This document shows, one piece after another, positions 20,042-30,340 of a stretch of DNA of 64,000 nucleotides. A program made the position numbers and the translations under genes. Source of the DNA: a bacterium HR10 (GTDB taxonomy: Bacteria > Acidobacteriota > Blastocatellia > HR10); contig BEHM01000001.1 of NCBI GenBank assembly GCA_002923315.1, positions 56,506 to 120,505 on the forward strand, written 5' to 3'. Within the stretch, counting starts at the first letter, position 1. Each line of letters starts with the position of its first letter. The notes under the pieces were generated by a model that was not told where the DNA came from, ran no database searches, and saw only the letters and a program-made list of their open reading frames with translations.

Positions 20042-20057
20042 CGGCACAATGGTTGCT
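20042..20057 (+). promoter_or_regulatory. candidate sigma-54 (-24/-12) promoter CGGCAC-N5-TTGCT upstream of the pentahaem cytochrome
   Basis: It has GG at -24 and GC at -12 with the correct 5-nt spacing, and lies about 160 nt upstream of ATG 20215. rpoN and a sigma-54 activator are both encoded in the window. Confidence 0.3.
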
Positions 20058-20214: not shown

Positions 20215-21033
20215 ATGAGGCGGCGAACATGCGCCTTTGTATTGGGTCTCAGTCTGGGCATTGGGGGAGCGCTGCTCGGAGCGCGCCTCGGAGGGGCATC
20301 CCCCCTTCAGGGAAGTGCGCAGGCGGAGAATTCGTGCGTGACGTGTCATCAGCGGATCACAACCCCGCTGGAGTTGAGTCAGCGGTATTACGATTGGCAC
20401 CTCTCGGTCCATAAGGAGAGAGGGGTTACCTGTGACGTCTGTCATGGGGGGGATCCTCGGGCGCGACAGGCGCAGGAGGCTCATCGCGAGATGCGCGCCT
20501 CCTCCGATCCACACAGTCGGGTGCATGGGAAGCATCAGCCGGAGACCTGCGGCGCGTGCCATCAAGAGGTGCGCACCGCTTATCTGGCGAGCGCGCACTT
20601 TGCGAAGCTCAGCGCGGCGGGTCTGGGACCGTTCTGCAGCACGTGCCATCTGCAGATGGCGAACGCGACGGTCCGGAGTGCCATTGACGTCAGCGCACTC
20701 TGCGGCCGCTGCCACAACGCCGAAGGAGGGATCATGCCGCCGAATCCGCAGCTCATCAAGAGCGCGCAGGAGACGCTCCTAAGCCTGAGTCGGGCCAACG
20801 GGGTGATCATCTGGGCGGATCGCCTCATCGAAGCGGCCGAGGGGAAGAACCTCACCATCGCCGAGGAGCGGCGGGAGTTAGAGGCGGCTCGAAAGCTCCT
20901 GCAAGAGGCGAAGTGGGAGTGGCACGCCTTCCGCCTGGAGCCCGTGCGGGCGAAGGCCGATCGCGCCTTCGAGCAGGGGGCGAAGGTGAAAGATCGGTTG
21001 CTGCAGAAGGTCTATCCGGGGTCGCGTCCATAG
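20215..21033 (+). CDS. periplasmic pentahaem c-type cytochrome
   Basis: The start is MRRRTCAFVLGLSLGIGGALLGA (signal peptide), preceded by GGAGGGA. There are five CxxCH motifs: CVTCH, CDVCH, CGACH, CSTCH, CGRCH. Confidence 0.7.
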   Translation: MRRRTCAFVLGLSLGIGGALLGARLGGASPLQGSAQAENSCVTCHQRITTPLELSQRYYDWHLSVHKERGVTCDVCHGGDPRARQAQEAHREMRASSDPHSRVHGKHQPETCGACHQEVRTAYLASAHFAKLSAAGLGPFCSTCHLQMANATVRSAIDVSALCGRCHNAEGGIMPPNPQLIKSAQETLLSLSRANGVIIWADRLIEAAEGKNLTIAEERRELEAARKLLQEAKWEWHAFRLEPVRAKADRAFEQGAKVKDRLLQKVYPGSRP

Positions 21034-21163: not shown

Positions 21164-21745
21164 TCAGGATGAGGACCGTCGCAAGGGCCTCGATTCGGGA
21201 GCGAGTCGCGCGAGAGCCTCCTCGACGAGGCGCCGACAGGAGGGGCAGAAGGCGTTCGATTTGATGTCCACGTGCTCGATGGAGTTTGAGAAGTGCATGA
21301 CGCAATCGAAGGTCGAGCAGTGGATGAGACCGAACGTGTGTCCCAACTCATGGAGCGCTTCCTTCTCGCAGCGCTCCAGGAAGAGTCGGCGATCCTCCGG
21401 CAGGCCGTAAAAGCGCTGGTCGAGCCGATGGACTGAGAGCACGGCCGCCGCTCCCCCAAGCTGCGCCTCCCCAAAGACGAACGTGAGGATGGGGATGAAG
21501 AGGTCCACGTCCGTCACGCCGAGCACCTTCACGGCGGGATTTCGGTGCCCTCGAACCAGTTGCGCGAGCAGCGTCGTGGAATGGTACTGCTGGCGGAGCG
21601 GGTGATAGGCGGCGTCCAACTCGATCGGATGGTCACGAATGCGACAGGAGACGGGGAGCGTCTCCGGCAAGACGAGCGCGAGGAACTCGAGGACGTCCGT
21701 GTCCACGTTCCCGATCGGGACCAGCTCGATGAGCGCCCGCGACAC
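21164..21745 (-). CDS. amzA: archaemetzincin-family zinc metalloprotease
   Basis: The sequence HELGHTFGLIHCSTFDCVMH...(16)...CPSC fits the archaemetzincin signature HExxHxxGx3Cx4CxMx17CxxC. Its start lies 12 bp downstream of the sigma-54 activator gene. Confidence 0.65.
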   Translation of the reverse strand: MSRALIELVPIGNVDTDVLEFLALVLPETLPVSCRIRDHPIELDAAYHPLRQQYHSTTLLAQLVRGHRNPAVKVLGVTDVDLFIPILTFVFGEAQLGGAAAVLSVHRLDQRFYGLPEDRRLFLERCEKEALHELGHTFGLIHCSTFDCVMHFSNSIEHVDIKSNAFCPSCRRLVEEALARLAPESRPLRRSSS

Positions 21746-21757
21746 GATCGCTCCTCG

Positions 21758-23119
21758 TCATACCGGCGAATCGGGTTTGAGCTGATACTTGCGAATCTTA
21801 TTGTAGAGCGTCACGCGATCAATGCCGAGCAACCGCGCGGCCTGCGAGATGTTCCACCTCGTCTCCTGCAGGATCCGCTGGATGTGCTGCCGCTCGACCT
21901 CGGCGAGCGTCTTTCCCACCGGCTGTCCGCGCGCTTCGTTCACCTGCAAGGGCAGGTCTTCGGGGCGGATCTCCCGTCCGCGGCAGACGAGCACCGCGCG
22001 CTCGATGGCATTTTGCAGCTCGCGCACGTTTCCCGGCCAGTCGTAGCGCTCCAACAGCGCCAGGGCTTCGGGCGAGATGCCGAGGATCGGCTTGTTCATG
22101 CTCTGCGCGAACTTCTTGAGGAAATGCTCGGCCAGAAGCGGGATGTCCTCCCGCCGCTCGCGCAGCGGCGGGATGGTGATGGAGAAGACGTTGAGGCGAT
22201 AATACAGGTCCTCGCGGAATCTCCCCTCGGCGACCAGGGCTTCCAGGTCTTTGTTCGTCGCCGCGATCAGACGGAAGTCCACGGGGATCGGCGTATTGCC
22301 GCCGACGCGAAAGATCTTCTTCTCCTCGAGCACGCGCAGCAGATCCACCTGCGTCTTGAGGCTGATGTCGCCGATCTCGTCCAGAAAGAGCGTCCCTCCA
22401 TCGGCCAGCTCGAATTTCCCCTTGCGCCGATAATGGGCGCCGGTGAAGGCGCCCTTCTCATGGCCGAACAGCTCGCTCTCGATCACCCCTTCGGCCAGAG
22501 CGCCGCAGTTGACGATGACGATCGGCATGTAGCGGCGGGGACTGTTGGCGTGAATGGCGCGGGCGACCAACTCCTTGCCCGTCCCGCTCTCCCCGCGGAT
22601 GAGGACCGTCGTATCGGACATGGCGACGAGGCGAATCTGTTCGAGCACTCGCTGAATGGCTGCACTCTGTCCGACGATCTCATGGAACAGCGCCATCTCC
22701 TGAATCCGCTCGCGCAGCCGGACGTTCTCGGCCACCAAGCGCTTCCGCTCGACGGCGTTTCGGATGATGTGCTCCAGCTGATCGGGATCGAAGGGCTTCA
22801 CGATGTAATCGTAAGCACCCTGCTTCATCGCCTCCACGGCCGTTTCGACCGAAGCGTAAGCCGTCATGATGATGATGGAGGCCTCCGGGGCGATCTCCCG
22901 AATGCGCCGCTGCAGTTGCAGTCCGTCCATTCCGGGCATCTTGATATCAATGAGGAAGATGTCGTAGCTCGACTCGGCCAGCTTCTGCAAGGTCTCCTTC
23001 CCCGATCCGGCGACGTCCACCGTGTATCCCTCCTCGCGGAGCCAGTTCCCCAGGGATTCCCGCACGATGGCCTCGTCGTCCACGATCAAAATGCGGATCG
23101 CGCTTTTGGATACCGTCAT
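21758..23119 (-). CDS. sigma-54-dependent response regulator (NtrC/ZraR family: REC-AAA+-HTH)
   Basis: It has a receiver (ILIVDDE...), an AAA+ Walker A (GESGTGKE), the sigma-54 contact motif GAFTGA, and a C-terminal Fis-type HTH. A 4-bp overlap with the upstream kinase gene indicates coupling. Confidence 0.9.
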   Translation of the reverse strand: MTVSKSAIRILIVDDEAIVRESLGNWLREEGYTVDVAGSGKETLQKLAESSYDIFLIDIKMPGMDGLQLQRRIREIAPEASIIIMTAYASVETAVEAMKQGAYDYIVKPFDPDQLEHIIRNAVERKRLVAENVRLRERIQEMALFHEIVGQSAAIQRVLEQIRLVAMSDTTVLIRGESGTGKELVARAIHANSPRRYMPIVIVNCGALAEGVIESELFGHEKGAFTGAHYRRKGKFELADGGTLFLDEIGDISLKTQVDLLRVLEEKKIFRVGGNTPIPVDFRLIAATNKDLEALVAEGRFREDLYYRLNVFSITIPPLRERREDIPLLAEHFLKKFAQSMNKPILGISPEALALLERYDWPGNVRELQNAIERAVLVCRGREIRPEDLPLQVNEARGQPVGKTLAEVERQHIQRILQETRWNISQAARLLGIDRVTLYNKIRKYQLKPDSPV

Positions 23120-24798
23120 AGCCTGCTCTCCATGTGGTGAGGCGCGTCTCCGGAGAAGACCTCGAAGGCGCGATCAGTCTGATCCTCCGCTCCCGTCGGC
23201 GGGGTGAGTGGGAGCCGGAGGGTGAACGTCGTCCCGTGCCCGAGCGCGGACTGCACGTGGATATCCCCCCCGTGCCGGTGAAGGATGCTGAGCACGACGG
23301 AGAGCCCGAGGCCGAGGCTCCCCTCCTTCTCCTTCGTCGTGAAGAAGGGTTCGAAGATGCGCCGTTGCGTCTCTTCATCCATCCCGACGCCGTTGTCGCG
23401 GATCGCGATCTCAACCCGCTGCGCCTCAGGGAGGAAACGCGAGGTGACGGTGAGCATGCCTTCTTCTGGCCGCACCGCTTCGCAGGCATTGATCAGGAGC
23501 GCGACCAGCGCTTGCCGCATCTGCTGTCCGTCGCAGACGACGGGCGGCACGTCCGGATCGAGTTGAACCTCCGTCTGCAGGCTCATCAGCTCGATCTTAT
23601 GCTGAATCAGGCGGAGCGATTGACGGATGAGTTCGTTGACATCATGCGGCTGGAAGTGCGCGCGCGAGGGGCGGACGAATTGCAAGAGGTTCTTCACGAT
23701 CTCCCCGCAGCGGGCCGATTCGCTGGCGATCATCTCCAGATACTGGCGCGCATTGGCGAGGTCCTCGGGCGAGAACCCGTGATCCCCCATCTTCTTGAGC
23801 AGGAGCTTGGCGGTCGTGAGGATGCCGGAGAGGGGGTTGTTGATCTCGTGAGCGACGATGGCGGCGAGTTTCCCGATGGAGGCCATGCGCTCGGCGTGCA
23901 TCATCTGCTCGTGCGTGCGTCGCAGCTCGGCCGTCTTCTCCGCCACGCGCTCCTCCAGGGTGCGCGCCCAGCTCGTCAGCTCCTCATGAGCGCGCTTCAA
24001 CTCCTCGGTCATGGCGTTGAATGACGCCGCCAACTCGCCCAGTTCGTCCCGCGCGGTGAGCGGGATCTTATGGTCGAGGTCGCCAGAGGCGACGCGCTCG
24101 GTCCCCCGCTTCAGGTGCCGGATCGGGACATGGATCATCACGGCGGTGACGGCCACGACAACGAGCGCGACAAAGAGGATGCTCCCCAGGAAGAGGAAGA
24201 AGAGCTGGCGCTGCCCTTCCGCGATGGCCGCGTCCACCGGGGCGAGCGAGAGCGTCACGTCCAACACGCCGAGCACCGATTGCGCCGGCGAGTGCGCGTG
24301 GCAGGAGGCCGTGTAACATCCCGGTTCGTTCTCAATGGGATTGATGAGTCCCAAGATGCGCTCTCCGCGCTCTCCGAGGTACACGCGGACGCGATCCGGA
24401 CGATCCAGGCGAACAAGCGGCTGCTCCTGCGCATGGCAGCCGTAGCAGGCCTCGGCGCGCTTGTCCACGAACGTATTCACCTCGCGCGCATCAGTGGAGA
24501 AGCTGATCCGACCCTCTTTGTCGAAGATGCGGATCTTGTGAATCCCGGGCTGCGCGCCGATGGTGAGGAGCGTGTGATAGATCTCATCCCGATGGTTCTG
24601 CAGCATGCTGTAGCGGAGCCCCCGCTTGATGACGTCGCTCGTGCGATCCGCGCTGGCGATGGTCATCTGCTCCAGGTCGCGCTTGTGCAGCCGGAGGGTT
24701 TGGTAGCCGAGCAGCGAGAAGACAAACGCCATGCTCGCGATGAGCCAAAGGGTCAGCTTCACGCTCACGCTCGATGTCCAGCGTCGCCACCCCCTCAT
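23116..24798 (-). CDS. sensor histidine kinase with haem-c-motif periplasmic domain (NtrB/ZraS-like HisKA)
   Basis: I chose the start at MRGWRRW (24798). The roughly 170-aa periplasmic segment between its two TM helices contains CYGCH (CxxCH) and CYTASCH (Cx4CH). It also has HAMP, an H-box (AHEINNPL) and HATPase_c. Confidence 0.8.
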   Translation of the reverse strand: MRGWRRWTSSVSVKLTLWLIASMAFVFSLLGYQTLRLHKRDLEQMTIASADRTSDVIKRGLRYSMLQNHRDEIYHTLLTIGAQPGIHKIRIFDKEGRISFSTDAREVNTFVDKRAEACYGCHAQEQPLVRLDRPDRVRVYLGERGERILGLINPIENEPGCYTASCHAHSPAQSVLGVLDVTLSLAPVDAAIAEGQRQLFFLFLGSILFVALVVVAVTAVMIHVPIRHLKRGTERVASGDLDHKIPLTARDELGELAASFNAMTEELKRAHEELTSWARTLEERVAEKTAELRRTHEQMMHAERMASIGKLAAIVAHEINNPLSGILTTAKLLLKKMGDHGFSPEDLANARQYLEMIASESARCGEIVKNLLQFVRPSRAHFQPHDVNELIRQSLRLIQHKIELMSLQTEVQLDPDVPPVVCDGQQMRQALVALLINACEAVRPEEGMLTVTSRFLPEAQRVEIAIRDNGVGMDEETQRRIFEPFFTTKEKEGSLGLGLSVVLSILHRHGGDIHVQSALGHGTTFTLRLPLTPPTGAEDQTDRAFEVFSGDAPHHMESRL

Positions 24799-24814: not shown

Positions 24815-26392
24815 TCACGGCCGATGACACACCGCGCATTCCTCCTGCGCGCTGAAGGAGGTCTTCCCGTCATGACATCGTCCGCAATGTCGCGCGTCGT
24901 GCCAGTCGCGCGCGGGACGCGACGAGGCCTCCCCCTCGACCTTCAGGATGTGGAACGGCTCACGATGACACACGGTGCAGTCCGGTCGCTCCCAGTTGAT
25001 GTGCGAAGCATGTCGGAACGTGACCGGCCCCGGGCTCCCCTCCCCCTGCGGGAACGTGACGTCCGGTGGGATGTTCAATCGTTCCAGCCCTTCGGCGATG
25101 TTCGGCTCTTCTTCGAGGCGAGACGGAGAGGCGAGAGCCCGCTCGCGATAGGACAGGCCGCTGTAGGCCACGCCGAGGGCGCCGAAGAAGACGATTCCGC
25201 CGAGGATCAGGATCAGAGGTGTCGTCCCGATCCACGGTCTTCGGAGAACGGCGACGGCCGGTGGGACTGCGACCTCCCGCTCCATCTCCGGAAAGACGGG
25301 CAGATATTTCACCGCCAACCCGAACAGGGCGAATCCCAGTGCTACGATCATGAAGGTCACCGAGAGCTCGGTCCAGCTTGGGAAGTACGAGACGCCGGAG
25401 GAGGCCTCCATCCCCGTGATGCTCACGTTCAACCGGTTCATGATGAAGCCCAGGACGACCAGGAGGGCGGAGACGAACAGGCCGAAATGGTCCGTCCGAA
25501 CGCGGCGCACGCTCAGCAGCAGCATGGGACCGATCACGCCGAGCATCATCTCGGCCAGGAACATCCGCGCCTCGTAGGTCGGCTCCAAGACGTGAGCGAG
25601 TGCACCGCGCCCGACCAGATCCTGAACCTTCAGCACCAGATACACGGCCAGCGCGACGACGATCACTTTGCCCAGATCGGTGAGCAGATCAATCTCCAGT
25701 CGTTTCCGGAATGCCCGGTAGCTCAGGAACGACTCGAAGATGGTCATCGCGCACCCGAGCGCGATGGCCGAGATGAAGAAGAAGACGGGCAGAAGCGGCG
25801 AGTACCAGAGCGGATGCAGCTTCTCCGGCACGATCAGATAGAGCGAACCGAGCGAGGATTGATGAAGCGTCGAGAGGATGACGCCGAGAATGACCAATGG
25901 TACCGTCAGCGCGTGCAGGATCCGAAGTGGCCTTTGAAGTCTCAAGCGCTCGAACACCATGGGGCTGAATTCCAGTGCGAGCACTGTCGTGTAGAGCATG
26001 ACGCACCAGGCCACCTCGAACATCACCGAGTGGGGATTCCACATGACCAGCGGATGCCAGATGCGATACGGGCGTCCCAGATCAAAGAGCAGGGCCACAA
26101 TGACCAGCAGGTACCCGAGGAAGGCCGTGAGGATCGTCGGGCGAATGATCGGGCGAAATCGCTCGATGTTGAAGATGTAGACGACGGCGCTGATGGTGAA
26201 TCCTCCGGCGGCCAGCGCGACCCCGCAGAGGACGTCGAAGCCCACCCACAGGCCCCATGGGAAGGCATCGCTCAGGGCCGTGCTCGCTCCCAATCCTCCG
26301 GTGAACCGGACGACCGTGCTGTAGAGGCCGGCACCCAAGATGACCAGAAACACCAGCTGCCAGAAACCAGGCCGTCGCAGGCGCCACCTCAT
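24815..26392 (-). CDS. NrfD/PsrC-family polytopic membrane subunit fused to a C-terminal cytochrome c7-like trihaem domain
   Basis: I chose the start at MRWRLRRPGFW (26392), preceded by AGGGAGG. It has about 10 TM helices of the NrfD type. The C-terminus (VTFRHASHINWERPDCTVCH...CGRCH...CAVCH) resembles PpcA-type trihaem cytochromes. Confidence 0.7.
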   Translation of the reverse strand: MRWRLRRPGFWQLVFLVILGAGLYSTVVRFTGGLGASTALSDAFPWGLWVGFDVLCGVALAAGGFTISAVVYIFNIERFRPIIRPTILTAFLGYLLVIVALLFDLGRPYRIWHPLVMWNPHSVMFEVAWCVMLYTTVLALEFSPMVFERLRLQRPLRILHALTVPLVILGVILSTLHQSSLGSLYLIVPEKLHPLWYSPLLPVFFFISAIALGCAMTIFESFLSYRAFRKRLEIDLLTDLGKVIVVALAVYLVLKVQDLVGRGALAHVLEPTYEARMFLAEMMLGVIGPMLLLSVRRVRTDHFGLFVSALLVVLGFIMNRLNVSITGMEASSGVSYFPSWTELSVTFMIVALGFALFGLAVKYLPVFPEMEREVAVPPAVAVLRRPWIGTTPLILILGGIVFFGALGVAYSGLSYRERALASPSRLEEEPNIAEGLERLNIPPDVTFPQGEGSPGPVTFRHASHINWERPDCTVCHREPFHILKVEGEASSRPARDWHDARHCGRCHDGKTSFSAQEECAVCHRP

Positions 26393-26471
26393 ACCTCCCT
26401 CCTTCGCCAGACCGCATCCGTCGCGCGAGTGGCACGCGCGAGGAAGCCGGATCTCCCTTTGCGTCGAGCCG

Positions 26472-27305
26472 TCATGACGAATTCGTTGAGTCGGATGCCG
26501 AGGATGATCCCGATGGCTCCGGGAGATCACGCGGCGGTTCTCCGGAGTCGCGTCCTCGCTCCTGGCGCTCTCGGCGTTGCACCTCTTGGCGCCGATTCGT
26601 GATCCACCAGATGCCTCCGAGCAGAACGCCCCCGACGATGACGAAGTTGGGGATCTTCTGCAAGACCTGCCACGTCAGCAGGGGGAGCGGCTCCCGGAGC
26701 AGATCCGTTCGGTAGCCCAGGCGCTCGAACGGGACATCCGAGAGCAGCAGGACCGAGGTTCCACCGACTTCCTCCAGGCCGTAAATCCTCGGCACGTACT
26801 TCTGCGGGTGAGCGCGAAGTCGCGCGCGGGCCTCCTCGATCAGCTCCTGACGATCCCCGAACTTCGTCGCTCCCGTGGGACAGACTTCGGCGCATGCCGT
26901 CGGTCGCCCTGCCACGAGGCGATCGGCACACAGATCGCACTTTCGGATGCGCGGCAGGATCTTCCGCCACTCATACTTCGGGATCCCGAAGGGGCATGCC
27001 AGCATGCAATAGCGGCATCCGATGCACCGCTCTTCGTGATAGATGACCGGGCCGGCCGCCGTCTTCTCCAACGCGCCGACCGGACAGACGGACGCGCACG
27101 TCGGGACCTCGCAGTGCATGCAGAGCTGGCGGACGAATCGTCCCCCGCGCTTCTTCACGACCGTATAGGTTTGGTCCGACAGCCGATCCTCCAAAAAGTG
27201 CGTCGCTGTCGGGGGGAGCCGGTTCCGCTCCTTGCACGCTTGGTAGCAGGCGCCGCATCCGATGCACAAGGTCGCATCAAAGAGGAGGCCCTTTTTGCTG
27301 CCCAT
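26472..27305 (-). CDS. 4x[4Fe-4S] ferredoxin-type subunit (NrfC/HybA/PsrB-like) with a C-terminal TM anchor and no signal peptide
   Basis: There are four Cys clusters (CIGCGACYQAC, CMHCEVPTCASVCP, CIGCRYCMLACP, CDLCADRL...CAEVCP) and a C-terminal helix (IVGGVLLGGIWWI). The start is the second ATG (27305), 6 nt after GGAGG. Confidence 0.8.
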   Translation of the reverse strand: MGSKKGLLFDATLCIGCGACYQACKERNRLPPTATHFLEDRLSDQTYTVVKKRGGRFVRQLCMHCEVPTCASVCPVGALEKTAAGPVIYHEERCIGCRYCMLACPFGIPKYEWRKILPRIRKCDLCADRLVAGRPTACAEVCPTGATKFGDRQELIEEARARLRAHPQKYVPRIYGLEEVGGTSVLLLSDVPFERLGYRTDLLREPLPLLTWQVLQKIPNFVIVGGVLLGGIWWITNRRQEVQRRERQERGRDSGEPPRDLPEPSGSSSASDSTNSS

Positions 27306-27555
27306 ACGCATCCTCCACTAGGAGGCGATGCAATTTCCATTCCACGCCTGGATCGTGAGGTCGCTTTCAGCAGCCGGCCACTGAGAGCCGTCCGGTCAAG
27401 CGGTTACAGCAGGGTGGCTCCCTCCTCTCATCCCCCGCGACTGCGCGCGAGGGAGAGGGGTGGGGCAAATCACTCGCTTCCTGAGGCGCGATTCGCGCCT
27501 CCGGCGAGGCTTCGACCTCAAGTGAGGGTCGGCAAAACGCCTTCCTTCGCTCGCT

Positions 27556-28248
27556 TCACCCCTCGGCTGGATGCGGGCTGCGCAGGAATGTTCGGGTGAA
27601 CTCCTCCCAACTGGCTTCATCCAGAGCCTCCAGGACGCCATCGGTCCACTGCCCGCCGTCCTGCAGGACGTGTCCGAGAGCCGCCTGCGGCATCGGCCGC
27701 CACGTGAGGAACTCCTTGAAGCGTTCGATCTCGCACTGGAGCCACGCCCGAGCTTCCTCGGCGACCAGCAGATGGCGTAAGTGCGCCGCCAGGTTCTTCG
27801 GCGTCAGCGTGCAGATCCATCCATCTTCGTACGGATCCATTCGCCCCGTCTCTGGCTGGCGCATGAGGATCTCATTGACCGCGCTCACCACTCCATCGAG
27901 CGGGGCGCGGAAGACGGCCCGTCGGCCCCCCTGCGTGATGGCGAAGAGCGGATCACCCCGCCGCACCATGACGCCGACTTTCGGCAAGTCCACGGCATCC
28001 ACGCGCCCGATGGCTCGACGCGCGAACTCATCCATGCCGACGAATGTCCGTCCGCTCGGTTCCAGGCGCACCCACGTGTGCCCTTCGTCCAGGAAGAGAC
28101 CGGCAGGGATGGAGACGGTCTCGAAGGCGAGCGTCGGACGCAGCGCCGGTCGCCTCACGGGACGTCCCTGTCGGGCCTCAGCCCATTGGACGACGGAATC
28201 CACGAGGATGAATCCGATGATCGTGAGAATGACAAAGAGAGCGACCAT
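27556..28248 (-). CDS. membrane-anchored glycine-cleavage-H-like (GcvH-fold) protein without the lipoyl-lysine
   Basis: It has an N-terminal TM (MVALFVILTIIGFILV). The GcvH-like core reads HTWVRLE...VGMDEFA...VDLPKVG...PYEDGWICTL. The position aligned to the lipoyl-Lys (ESVKA in GcvH) reads TQGGRRA. A strong RBS (GGAGGTGA) precedes the start. Confidence 0.6.
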   Translation of the reverse strand: MVALFVILTIIGFILVDSVVQWAEARQGRPVRRPALRPTLAFETVSIPAGLFLDEGHTWVRLEPSGRTFVGMDEFARRAIGRVDAVDLPKVGVMVRRGDPLFAITQGGRRAVFRAPLDGVVSAVNEILMRQPETGRMDPYEDGWICTLTPKNLAAHLRHLLVAEEARAWLQCEIERFKEFLTWRPMPQAALGHVLQDGGQWTDGVLEALDEASWEEFTRTFLRSPHPAEG

Positions 28249-28251
28249 AGT

Positions 28252-29184
28252 TCACCTCCTCTCCGGAGATCGCCTCCGAGGCGCACTCACCGTGCGCCCG
28301 ATCCGTGGCTGCAAGAACCGCGCGATCACCTGTTCCCATCGCGCGGGACCAAGGACTTCCATGAGCGATTCCATCGCAGCCCGCGTCAGCATCTCCTGCG
28401 CCGTGCACTCCCCTTCAAGGGGAACGCCCCCATCTTGGAGCGTGCGGCCTGCGGCAGAGACTTCTGGGGGCGTCCCCAAAGCGCGCAAGGCCGCGCGAAC
28501 CGCTCGGTGCAGCTTCGAAACTTCCCGCTCATACCAAGAACGCGCCTGCTCCCCATAGAGCAGGTGCTTCAAACTCTCCCGCAAACGTTCCGGTCGCAAC
28601 AGTAGCAGCCATCCGTCCCCATACGGATCGTGATTGATGAGGGAGGGGTATCGCGTGAGCCGCTCGTTGAGCTGAAGGATGACACCCGTCAGAGGAGCGG
28701 ACAGAATGATCTCCCCGGCCTGATGCGCCAGCTTACCCAGCGGGCGTCCGGCGATCACGCGCGCGCCCACTTCCGGAAAGCTCACCTGATAAATCCGCCC
28801 GAGGAGCTTCTGTCCGAAATCATCCAGTCCGATTCGCACGTCCCCCCGCCGCTCGATGCGCGCCCACACATGCGTCGGATGGTAGAAGAGCGCCTCCGCC
28901 ATGTGGAAGCCACCTCGGCTGAAGAGGCGGTGAGACGCCGTGCGCTCACCGTGAGATCGTGAGCTTCCCTCCTCACCGGCGATCTCCCTCGTCCGCTCCC
29001 GAAGGGCGCGGTCAAAAGGGCAATGGTCGCATTCGTAGTCGCGATCGCAAAGTTTGTAGTCCACGATCCCCGCCAACATCCACACGCACTGGAGCACGGG
29101 AGCAGCACCCTCGCGCTCGATGGAGAGCGGATGAGCTCCAGGGCCGGTGGCCTCGGTCGGTCCTCTCGACAGCACCTCGTCCAT
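28252..29184 (-). CDS. GcvH-like protein with an N-terminal Cys-rich motif
   Basis: I chose the start at ATG 29184 (MDEVLSRG), preceded by GGGAGGG. The Cys motif is CVWMLAGIVDYKLCDRDYECDHCPFD, followed by a GcvH-like core (THVWARIE...IGLDDFGQKLLG...HDPYGDGWLLL). The raw ORF start at 29331 is a TTG inside a regulatory palindrome, which is why I rejected it. Confidence 0.55.
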   Translation of the reverse strand: MDEVLSRGPTEATGPGAHPLSIEREGAAPVLQCVWMLAGIVDYKLCDRDYECDHCPFDRALRERTREIAGEEGSSRSHGERTASHRLFSRGGFHMAEALFYHPTHVWARIERRGDVRIGLDDFGQKLLGRIYQVSFPEVGARVIAGRPLGKLAHQAGEIILSAPLTGVILQLNERLTRYPSLINHDPYGDGWLLLLRPERLRESLKHLLYGEQARSWYEREVSKLHRAVRAALRALGTPPEVSAAGRTLQDGGVPLEGECTAQEMLTRAAMESLMEVLGPARWEQVIARFLQPRIGRTVSAPRRRSPERR

Positions 29185-29210: not shown

Positions 29211-29226
29211 GGCAATCGATGTGCCG
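29211..29226 (-). promoter_or_regulatory. candidate sigma-54 promoter (minus strand: CGGCAC-ATCGA-TTGCC) for the GcvH-like operon
   Basis: On the minus strand there is GG at -24 and GC at -12 with 5-nt spacing. The predicted TSS is near 29200, about 16 nt before ATG 29184 and spanning its RBS. Confidence 0.4.
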
Positions 29227-29474: not shown

Positions 29475-29490
29475 TGGCATGCGGCTTGCA
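29475..29490 (+). promoter_or_regulatory. sigma-54 promoter TGGCAT-GCGGC-TTGCA for the C_GCAxxG-dihaem gene
   Basis: A near-consensus -24 (TGGCAY) and -12 (TTGCA) with 5-nt spacing. The predicted TSS is near 29500. RBS GGAGGGA lies at 29524-29530 and ATG at 29537. Confidence 0.5.
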
Positions 29491-29536: not shown

Positions 29537-30340
29537 ATGAGGAAGACGCTGACGCGAAAAGAGTTCCTCACGTTGACGACCAAATGTGCCACATGCGCCG
29601 CCGTCGGTGCAGCTGGGCTGAGCCTCCTCGGAAGGGAAGGGATCGCCCAGATGGATCTTCCGCCGTGGCCGTGGCCCTATCGAAAGCTCGATCCCGAGTA
29701 CGTGCGCAAGCTCGGGCACGAGGGGTATTGGGAGAAAGGATATGGCTGCGCCTATGGCGCTTTCAGAGCCATCATCATCCCATTGCGCGAGGCGGTCGGG
29801 TATCCCTATACGATGATCCCCACGGAGCTCATGATCTGGGGGCACGGGGGCGTCGTCGGATGGGGCGGAACGTGTGGGGCGCTCCTTGGGGCCAGCGCCG
29901 CTATTCAGCTCGTGTGCGATAAGCCGACGGCCGATCGGCTCATCCATGAATTGCAGGGGTGGTACACGCAAGCGCTCCTGCCGACGGACATCAGCAACGA
30001 GTACGCGCAGACAGGGCAGTTCTTCGTCCAGAAGTACACGCGACCACTCCCGCAGAATGCCGCAGGCTCACCCCTGTGTCACATCTCGGTGACCTTGTGG
30101 TGCGAGCGTTCGGGATTCACCGCTTCCTCACTTGAACGCAAAGAGCGCTGCGGCCGGCTCACAGGTGATGTCGCCGCTCGCGCCGTGGAGCTATTGAATC
30201 AATGGGCTGATGGTCAATTCCAGAGCATCTATGTCCCACCGGAGTCCATCGCGACCTGCCTCACGTGTCACGGGGATAAGGGGCTGGACAACGTGAAGGC
30301 CAAGATGAACTGCACGCAGTGCCACGCGCCGCATCCGTGA
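29537..30340 (+). CDS. C_GCAxxG_C_C-family putative redox protein fused to a C-terminal dihaem cytochrome c, with a Tat-like (RK) signal peptide
   Basis: The signal is MRKTLTRKEFLTLTTKCATCAAVGAAG. The family motifs are GYGCAYGAF and GGTCGALLGA. Two CxxCH motifs (CLTCH, CTQCH) sit in the last 40 aa. Confidence 0.65.
   Translation: MRKTLTRKEFLTLTTKCATCAAVGAAGLSLLGREGIAQMDLPPWPWPYRKLDPEYVRKLGHEGYWEKGYGCAYGAFRAIIIPLREAVGYPYTMIPTELMIWGHGGVVGWGGTCGALLGASAAIQLVCDKPTADRLIHELQGWYTQALLPTDISNEYAQTGQFFVQKYTRPLPQNAAGSPLCHISVTLWCERSGFTASSLERKERCGRLTGDVAARAVELLNQWADGQFQSIYVPPESIATCLTCHGDKGLDNVKAKMNCTQCHAPHP

Follow-up and report, generated by a model that had tools for sequence, protein, structure and literature searches.

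Within a 64,000-nucleotide (nt) stretch of the genome of bacterium HR10, a member of the Acidobacteriota (assembly GCA_002923315.1, contig BEHM01000001.1, positions 56,506 to 120,505 of the forward strand; hereafter the window), two adjacent genes on the minus strand code for an iron-sulfur (Fe-S) protein predicted to carry four clusters and for an NrfD-type membrane protein that ends in a trihaem cytochrome domain of the c7 type. We conclude that this pair is probably a periplasm-facing, quinone-linked electron-transfer module of the Hmc, Nhc, Qrc and ACIII (alternative complex III) kind, with cytochrome and membrane subunit joined in a single chain. The Fe-S subunit and the trihaem domain most likely both lie outside the cytoplasmic membrane, on the same side. 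In many respiratory chains, both aerobic and anaerobic, modules of the NrfD type form the link between the chemistry of quinones and redox partners in the periplasm. An earlier reading of the window, the original prediction, had located both genes correctly and had proposed a quinone-linked module of this type, which our analysis supports; it had also proposed a cytoplasmic location for the Fe-S domain, a view that we weigh below. A scan found at least 598 loci that carry the pair, and synteny was compared in 80 loci. All coordinates refer to the numbering of the window unless a related locus is named.

A signal-less, tail-anchored iron-sulfur subunit

The Fe-S gene runs on the minus strand from an ATG at 27305 to a stop codon at 26472 and codes for 277 amino acids (aa) with a match to Pfam Fer4_11 (E 6.5e-21). 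Four cysteine groups can be read from its sequence, C14xxCxxCxxxC, C63xxCx4CxxxCP, C95xxCxxCxxxCP and C124xxCx11CxxxCP, a content of 4x[4Fe-4S] like that of HmcB, HybA and FdnH. The first of these cysteines is residue 14, only 13 residues after the start. The possibility that the true start lies further upstream and hides a signal was checked and is excluded. An N-terminal signal is impossible because an in-frame TAG at 27320-27318, five codons 5' of the ATG, blocks any extension of the reading frame, and a GGAGG ribosome-binding site is present 6 nt before the ATG. The opposite end of the protein contains a C-terminal transmembrane (TM) anchor (residues 214-236, 26598..26666, minus strand; hydropathy peak 1.67) that is followed by an Arg-rich tail, NRRQEVQRRERQERGR. 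The motif GG..L.GIWWITNRR of this C-terminal region is kept across 70+ loci, and the basic character of the tail is conserved in every locus. The earlier description of a protein that has no signal and ends in a TM helix is therefore correct.

Absence of a signal is a property of the family and not just of the HR10 protein. An in-frame stop codon occurs no more than 25 codons before the first cysteine in 29 of 53 related loci that were checked for upstream stops, and the Fe-S N-termini listed for related loci enter the first ferredoxin-fold strand directly. When all open reading frames (ORFs) of 80 loci and of the window were scanned for the twin-arginine N-termini of twin-arginine translocation (Tat) signals, none was found in family members, and no conserved ORF with a Tat signal was found within 6 kb in the 80 loci. 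This absence is specific to the main Fe-S family, because a paralogous Fe-S and NrfD pair (41% identity) encoded beside the main cluster in one related locus (L075, 372-2479, minus strand) includes an Fe-S protein with a canonical twin-arginine signal, MGLNRRGFLKHL. Two further candidates were considered and rejected. The stretch RLRRPGFW at the NrfD N-terminus does not qualify as a Tat signal, as the family consensus has no RR, and a neighbouring split-Soret-like protein with a Tat-type N-terminus does not qualify as a general export partner, as it occurs in one of the 80 loci.

Profile comparisons place the Fe-S subunit near two known families. It scores 257 bits against NCBIfam HmcB (cut-off 420; profile positions 37-295 of 307) and 215 bits against HybA (cut-off 263; positions 40-325 of 329). 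Both alignments begin past the N-terminal signal region of the profiles and extend to near their C-terminal ends. The protein has the four cysteine groups and the C-terminal TM helix of the HmcB/HybA type but not a Tat signal of its own. Its closest solved relative is FdnH (1kqf_B, E 2e-33).

An NrfD core joined to a trihaem c7 domain

The second gene (24815..26392, minus strand, ATG at 26392) codes for a 525-aa protein that matches Pfam NrfD over residues 39-327 (90 bits, cut-off 25.8) and Pfam Cytochrome_C7 over residues 457-524 (37.4 bits, cut-off 24.8). An NrfD protein of about ten helices had been expected; the fold is indeed that of NrfD, but the helices number eleven, a ten-helix core plus one. 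The HmcC/HybB-like core (residues 1-363, 25304..26392, minus strand) was delimited by hydropathy and by an AlphaFold2 (AF2) model, as was the extra eleventh helix (residues 390-421, 25130..25225, minus strand; hydropathy 2.24). The model has a predicted local distance difference test (pLDDT) score of 80.7, and its ten core helices and the eleventh agree with hydropathy. The best Foldseek matches of the core are the ACIII subunits ActC and ActF (target TM-score up to 0.66). Against NCBIfam the protein scores 348 bits with HmcC (cut-off 550) and 319 bits with HybB (cut-off 450), neither of which is above the cut-off. Its profile score, the ten helices before residue 363 and the N-in orientation make it a member of the NrfD/PsrC family (PF03916), in the 10-TM HybB/HmcC/ActC class, whose proteins add two helices to a core of eight and have both termini of the core protein in the cytoplasm.

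The trihaem domain (residues 453-525, 24818..25036, minus strand) was recognized by Pfam and by TIGR04257 (51.6 bits, cut-off 40). It has CxxCH motifs at C472, C503 and C519, and its distal ligands are assigned from the sequence as His461, His464 and His498. The three CxxCH motifs together with His461 and His464 are invariant in 134 relatives. A likeness to the trihaem cytochrome PpcA had been suggested, and while the domain is indeed a c7 trihaem domain, the c7-type domains of the Geobacter dodecahaem cytochrome GSU1996 (3ov0; profile E 5.6e-43) are far closer to it than PpcA is (E about 0.1). When the c7 tail was compared with representative proteins, the same type of c7 was seen to exist also as stand-alone proteins and as polymers.

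The fusion of c7 to NrfD is present in all 120 of 120 relatives among the matches listed, mostly from Acidobacteriota, and in approximately 16 of the 80 loci compared. It is thus common in metagenomes rather than rare, yet it is uncharacterised. The impression that this fusion was unfamiliar holds for the literature, as searches turned up no paper on the fusion or on the gene cluster, but does not hold for its occurrence. The arrangement of the cytochrome varies among related loci. For example, one NrfD protein has two tandem c7 domains with six CxxCH motifs (L020, 5809-7848), and in another locus c7 is a separate 138-aa gene located between the GcvH-like and Fe-S genes (L022, 1293-1709). Additionally, many Acidobacteriaceae loci without c7 have a gene just 5' of the Fe-S gene that codes for a monohaem cytochrome c of approximately 107 aa, with a Sec-type signal (MKKVILAVL...LSWAQ) and a CAxCH motif (L048, 4706-5029; L050, 4197-4520; L054, L058, L065, L073 and others).

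In the predicted topology of the membrane subunit the N-terminus is inside (N-in) and the c7 domain at the C-terminus outside, as supported by the loop charges, the eleven TM helices and the haem attachment site. Loops assigned to the cytoplasm contain 22 Lys and Arg residues versus 7 in loops assigned to the periplasm, and attachment of haem c takes place only on the periplasmic side of the membrane. An external trihaem domain, as originally proposed, is therefore retained. Conservation is higher in the periplasmic loops (0.82) than in the cytoplasmic loops (0.65). The only invariant His residues of the NrfD region are H113 and H177, both at periplasmic helix ends, and no conserved set of haem-b ligands was found when conservation was examined across relatives. 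This pattern argues against the presence of a transmembrane dihaem.

Location of the iron-sulfur domain

Several features of the pair lead us to infer that the Fe-S domain is located in the periplasm. The basic tail that follows the TM helix of the Fe-S subunit points to the cytoplasm, which would leave the Fe-S domain outside. Natural fusions of the form Fe-S–TM–linker–NrfD point the same way and occur in at least three lineages, one of them with c7 (P0047, 819 aa) and others without (P0241-P0244, 653-657 aa). A basic linker of 35-60 residues connects the Fe-S TM helix to NrfD helix 1 in these proteins, and with a single TM helix between the two domains the Fe-S domain would be opposite the NrfD N-terminus, on the side of the haems. 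Furthermore, the operons bring a periplasmic cytochrome of their own, and since NrfD has no conserved haem-b ligand set, these c7 and monohaem cytochromes would be left with no redox partner unless the Fe-S clusters are external.

These features agree with what is known of related proteins. The textbook examples of Fe-S proteins that are anchored by their tail and face the periplasm are FdnH and HybA. The FdnH chain likewise ends in a TM helix and lacks a signal, and it is exported together with a partner that does have a Tat signal (PMC10924467), so absence of a signal does not imply a cytoplasmic location. In the 10-TM NrfD proteins ActC and ActF, both termini are cytoplasmic and the Fe-S partner and the quinone site are periplasmic (PMC8076601). 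A three-gene module composed of a tail-anchored Fe-S protein, a HybB-like protein and a periplasmic cytochrome c has also been described (PMC10924467).

The original prediction had argued from the missing signal to a cytoplasmic Fe-S domain, with electrons crossing the membrane between a cytoplasmic donor or acceptor and the c7 haems in the periplasm by way of quinone at NrfD. This arrangement would readily account for a family that has neither a signal peptide nor a linked Tat partner, and the Fe-S–NrfD fusions would be straightforward to assemble with an internal Fe-S domain. The operon also codes for cytoplasmic GcvH-like proteins, one of which is membrane-anchored, and an NrfD-type complex that faces the cytoplasm, SoeABC, does exist. 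However, the fusions have one TM helix between the Fe-S domain and NrfD, and c7 is preceded by eleven, so that c7 would be forced to the inside, where haem c is not attached, if the Fe-S domain were cytoplasmic. This location is contradicted by the basic residues that follow the TM helix of the Fe-S subunit and by the charge bias of the NrfD loops, and it needs a conserved C-terminal tail that does not span the membrane even though HybA and FdnH have true TM anchors homologous to this tail. The lack of haem-b ligands in NrfD would leave a cytoplasmic Fe-S domain with no wire to the haems, so the proposed electron transfer across the membrane loses its path, and we know of no quinone site on the cytoplasmic side in the NrfD family. 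Finally, an orientation like that of SoeABC has the Fe-S docking face in the cytoplasm, whereas the predicted N-in topology, the periplasmic position of the conserved loops and c7, and the fusions all indicate the reverse for the HR10 proteins. We consider a cytoplasmic Fe-S domain to be improbable.

With a periplasmic Fe-S domain the following route for electrons can be proposed. Quinol would be oxidized, or quinone reduced, near the periplasmic face of the 10-TM NrfD core. The Fe-S subunit would be docked on the periplasmic loops, which are conserved, and anchored by its C-terminal TM helix, its tail reaching into the cytoplasm, and its four [4Fe-4S] clusters would carry the electrons. The three haems of c7, a domain tethered by the eleventh TM helix and a linker of approximately 40 residues, would come next, and these haems would exchange electrons in either direction with periplasmic partners. 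The kinase and NtrC-type regulator of the probably sigma54-dependent operon, described below, presumably switch the module on according to the periplasmic redox state.

A number of points weigh against this periplasmic module. Because the family has no Tat signal and no conserved Tat-signal protein occurs within 6 kb in the 80 loci, the export route of the Fe-S subunit is unaccounted for. The difficulty is greater in the fusions, where an N-terminal domain of approximately 210 aa with its cofactors would have to cross the membrane before the 10-11 TM helices that follow; to our knowledge there is no precedent for such export ahead of a polytopic protein. An AF2 model of P0047, built on an alignment bridged by the four other natural fusions (P0241-P0244), gave a single-chain pLDDT of 63, with 35-50 in the Fe-S part, which is too poor to show the docking side. 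Moreover, the roles of the conserved GcvH-like proteins and of the archaemetzincin are not explained by a periplasmic electron-transfer module.

A gene cluster conserved across phyla

The pair is part of a tightly packed row of seven genes that reads on the minus strand from 29184 to 21164 and whose gene lengths are identical to those of the public gene calls for the contig. The row starts with a gene for a soluble GcvH-like protein (28252..29184, minus strand; 310 aa, as in the public gene call; Pfam GCV_H E 1.2e-21) and one for a second GcvH-like protein with an N-terminal TM helix (27556..28248, minus strand; 230 aa; GCV_H E 3.4e-20). The Fe-S (26472..27305) and NrfD-c7 genes follow, and the row continues with genes for a sensor histidine kinase (23116..24798, minus strand; 560 aa; Pfam HAMP, HisKA and HATPase_c), an NtrC-type sigma54-dependent response regulator (21758..23119, minus strand; Pfam Response_reg, Sigma54_activat with E 1e-71, and HTH_8) and an archaemetzincin of peptidase family M54 (21164..21745, minus strand; Pfam E 8.6e-29; NCBIfam archmetzin 175 bits, cut-off 145).

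Comparison of related loci showed that this cluster is kept across approximately ten phyla, nearly always in the order of one or more GcvH-like genes, Fe-S, NrfD with or without c7, kinase, sigma54 regulator and archaemetzincin. The five genes from Fe-S to archaemetzincin occur in one order, on one strand and with small gaps in approximately 65 of the 80 loci. Hosts include Acidobacteriota, KSB1, Ignavibacteriales, Bacteroidota, Myxococcales and Latescibacterota, as well as Eisenbacteria, Methylomirabilota, Calditrichales and the cultured Geothrix fuzhouensis. The regulator is located 3' of the kinase in nearly all loci. The archaemetzincin is the last gene of the cluster and is kept in most loci; in HR10 its HELGHTFGLIH sequence (HExxHxxGxxH) and its Cys4 motif are intact. 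Its position after the sigma54 regulator suggests regulated proteolysis within the system.

The number of GcvH-like genes ranges from one to three per cluster, and few of their products have the residue that carries lipoate in GcvH. The 230-aa HR10 protein has its TM helix at residues 2-20, followed by basic residues, and a Gly at the lipoyl-Lys position. The 310-aa protein is likewise without the lipoyl lysine and has an N-terminal Cx13Cx6CxxC motif. Among 72 relatives, a Lys occupies the lipoyl position in 5 and a TM helix is present in 51, and some contain the Cx13Cx6CxxC motif.

Databases name relatives of the pair differently, as a Ni/Fe-hydrogenase cytochrome b subunit or a formate dehydrogenase iron-sulfur subunit (NCBI/JGI), which would make them HybA and HybB of [NiFe] hydrogenase 2 or a formate dehydrogenase beta subunit. 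HybA and HybB are indeed the second-best NCBIfam matches. However, the scores are under the cut-offs (HybA 215 versus 263 bits, HybB 319 versus 450 bits) and there is no hydrogenase, formate dehydrogenase or molybdopterin gene within 10 kb on the source contig. The synteny comparison showed no other conserved neighbours, with the related loci not having been searched directly for catalytic-subunit genes, and the Tat scan of the 80 loci revealed no catalytic partner with a Tat signal. There is very little chance that these names are correct, and they are misleading for the pair.

Sensor kinase and candidate sigma54-type promoters

The periplasmic domain of the kinase (residues 38-198, between two TM helices) contains the motifs CYGCH and CYTASCH, which correspond to CxxCH and Cx4CH. 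Of 67 homologous kinases, 63 have both motifs, spaced by approximately 43 aa, and none lacks the second; the motifs are conserved with or without c7 in the locus. The Cx4CH-A-H motif is unusual, and the blocks SDVIKR and PIEN are also invariant. The domain has a weak match to the haem-c sensor domain of Geobacter (PF21563; 24.4 bits, cut-off 27), and no relative was found by sequence among solved structures. It looks like an undescribed family of sensors with two haem-c motifs.

A sigma54-type promoter candidate, CGGCACATCGATTGCC, was found by pattern match on the minus strand at 29211..29226, 27 nt before the operon's first gene. Of 46 related loci, 29 have sites of this type 40-110 nt 5' of the first gene for a GcvH-like protein, versus 15.6 expected. 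Pattern matching also identified a second candidate, TGGAATGGAAATTGCA, just upstream of the Fe-S gene (27329..27344, minus strand), and TGGAAGGGAAGTTGCA is at the matching position upstream of the Fe-S gene in one related locus (L001). Sites directly 5' of the Fe-S gene are not enriched, however, as they occur in 23 of 76 loci versus 18 expected. The pattern count over the whole window is that expected by chance (16 versus 18 expected), which leaves the placement of the sites as the one suggestive feature. The operon is probably sigma54-dependent.

The tie between the pair and the kinase raises another interpretation, in which the Fe-S and NrfD proteins, with c7 where present, serve mainly as the input device of the adjacent two-component system and not as a bulk respiratory enzyme. 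The module would equilibrate the two periplasmic haems of the kinase with the quinone pool, and the kinase would report the state of the pool to the sigma54 regulator. The conserved gene order on one strand with small gaps in approximately 65 of 80 loci across some ten phyla fits such a redox-sensing relay, as do retention of the CxxCH and Cx4CH motifs of the kinase in 63-67 of 67 homologues regardless of c7, a kinase start that is at most approximately 100 nt from the NrfD stop in most loci without c7, and the sigma54-type promoter candidates before the operon. Yet a two-component system beside its target operon is commonplace and is no proof of a physical relay, and a four-cluster wire with a proton-linked 10-TM subunit is heavy equipment for sensing. 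The dedicated cytochrome genes of the operons fit electron throughput equally well. We regard a relay of this kind as possible but unlikely. A broader proposal would have a respiratory Fe-S/NrfD module, with or without c7, recruited as the quinone-pool input of a haem-c kinase in a widespread form of sigma54 signalling, with Tat-less export by an undescribed route and with the GcvH-like proteins and the archaemetzincin acting on the cytoplasmic signalling side; this we view as speculative and doubtful. A periplasmic electron-transfer module whose expression is presumably controlled by the kinase and regulator is the interpretation that we continue to favour.

Neighbouring genes

Several genes near the cluster also concern sigma54 or haem proteins. 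A nitrogen-related phosphotransferase system (nitrogen-PTS) cluster extends on the minus strand from 30484 to approximately 36400 and includes rpoN (sigma54), hpf, hprK, rapZ and genes for EIIA, an HPr-like protein and enzyme I. It is one gene away from the probably sigma54-dependent operon.

A gene divergent from the operon (29537-30340, plus strand) codes for the split-Soret-like protein mentioned above, which has a C_GCAxxG_C_C domain and two CxxCH motifs and scores 194 bits against split-Soret cytochrome c (cut-off 400). Its N-terminus is Tat-like with RK instead of RR (MRKTLTRKEFLTL...), an unexpected feature in a protein of the haem-c type. A sigma54 promoter candidate close to the consensus, TGGCATGCGGCTTGCA, lies 47 nt upstream of this gene (29475-29490, plus strand), and the divergent arrangement was found again only in L052. 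At the other end of the operon, an ORF at 20215-21033 (plus strand) has five CxxCH motifs and a signal-like N-terminus (MRRRTCAFVLGLSLG...) and resembles a pentahaem cytochrome c; the public record calls just its last 99 aa as a gene. A sigma54-like site, CGGCACAATGGTTGCT, is located approximately 160 nt upstream of this ORF (20042-20057, plus strand).

Significance and comparison with known systems

The variant described here is abundant in soil and sediment Acidobacteriota and in about nine further phyla and has been named only by automatic annotation, wrongly. If the pair is a periplasm-facing module, then the respiratory repertoire of these little-studied groups would include a compact quinol:cytochrome c oxidoreductase of two polypeptides, or one that works in reverse. 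Its conserved link to a kinase with haem motifs and to a sigma54 regulator makes respiratory redox sensing in these bacteria directly testable. Additionally, a periplasmic multi-cluster Fe-S protein with neither a Tat signal nor a visible partner would challenge the export rules for cofactor-containing proteins, a challenge that is sharpest for the fusions.

For both subunits the best family matches are in the Hmc complex of Desulfovibrio (HmcB 257 bits, HmcC 348 bits) and in simpler systems of the Nhc/Ohc type, which consist of a cytochrome c, an Fe-S protein and NrfD. The pair shares with these a tail-anchored four-cluster Fe-S protein, a 10-TM NrfD subunit and, in the periplasm, a partner cytochrome c with several haems. 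Unlike Hmc, its scores are under the equivalog cut-offs and its cytochrome is a trihaem c7 fused to NrfD via an extra TM helix. A signal region at the N-terminus, part of both the HmcB and the HybA profile, is absent from the HR10 Fe-S subunit. Neither the 16-haem cytochrome HmcA nor HmcD, HmcE or HmcF (a cytochrome b and a cytoplasmic CCG protein) was found within 10 kb or in conserved synteny. Because all four scores are below their cut-offs, the pair is, as judged by these profiles, not orthologous to HmcBC or HybAB.

The closest parallel in parts is the three-gene module of PMC10924467, in which a tail-anchored Fe-S protein, a HybB-like quinol oxidase and often an octahaem cytochrome c supply the same three parts with the same predicted topology. 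A signal-less variant of the Fe-S protein with the C-terminal tail, paired with a HybB-like protein, was also reported there (PMC10924467). In those modules a Tat signal is present either on the Fe-S protein itself or, where that protein has none, on an adjacent FeFe hydrogenase (PMC10924467), whereas neither is the case in HR10. Also unlike that module, the HR10 cytochrome is fused, and the cluster adds the kinase, the sigma54 regulator, the archaemetzincin and the GcvH-like genes.

FdnH of E. coli resembles the HR10 Fe-S subunit in its four clusters, its C-terminal TM anchor and its lack of a signal of its own, and its Fe-S domain is periplasmic. However, FdnH travels with FdnG, which has a Tat signal, and docks on the dihaem cytochrome b FdnI, whereas the HR10 partner is an NrfD protein. 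HybA differs in having its own Tat signal, and the HR10 pair has no catalytic subunit beside it.

With ACIII (ActA, ActB, ActC and ActF) and QrcABCD the pair shares the logic of a periplasmic multihaem cytochrome, an Fe-S subunit and a quinone site in NrfD. ActA of Chloroflexus even holds a c7-like domain (8k9e_A), although the profile match is weak (E 0.005). Unlike ACIII, the HR10 Fe-S subunit consists of ferredoxin domains with no MopB-like domain, there is a single NrfD protein with 16-18% identity to ActC, and there is no ActD or ActE. No Act genes were found nearby, and the features that define ACIII, an ActB with a MopB-like domain, ActF as a second NrfD protein, and ActA and ActE, are not those of the HR10 cluster. 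Finally, the Geobacter dodecahaem protein GSU1996 (TIGR04257, 'nanowire_3heme') and PpcA share with the HR10 protein the trihaem c7 signature of three CxxCH motifs and conserved distal His residues. While GSU1996 is a soluble polymer of c7-type domains, HR10 has a single domain of this kind that is tethered to a membrane protein.

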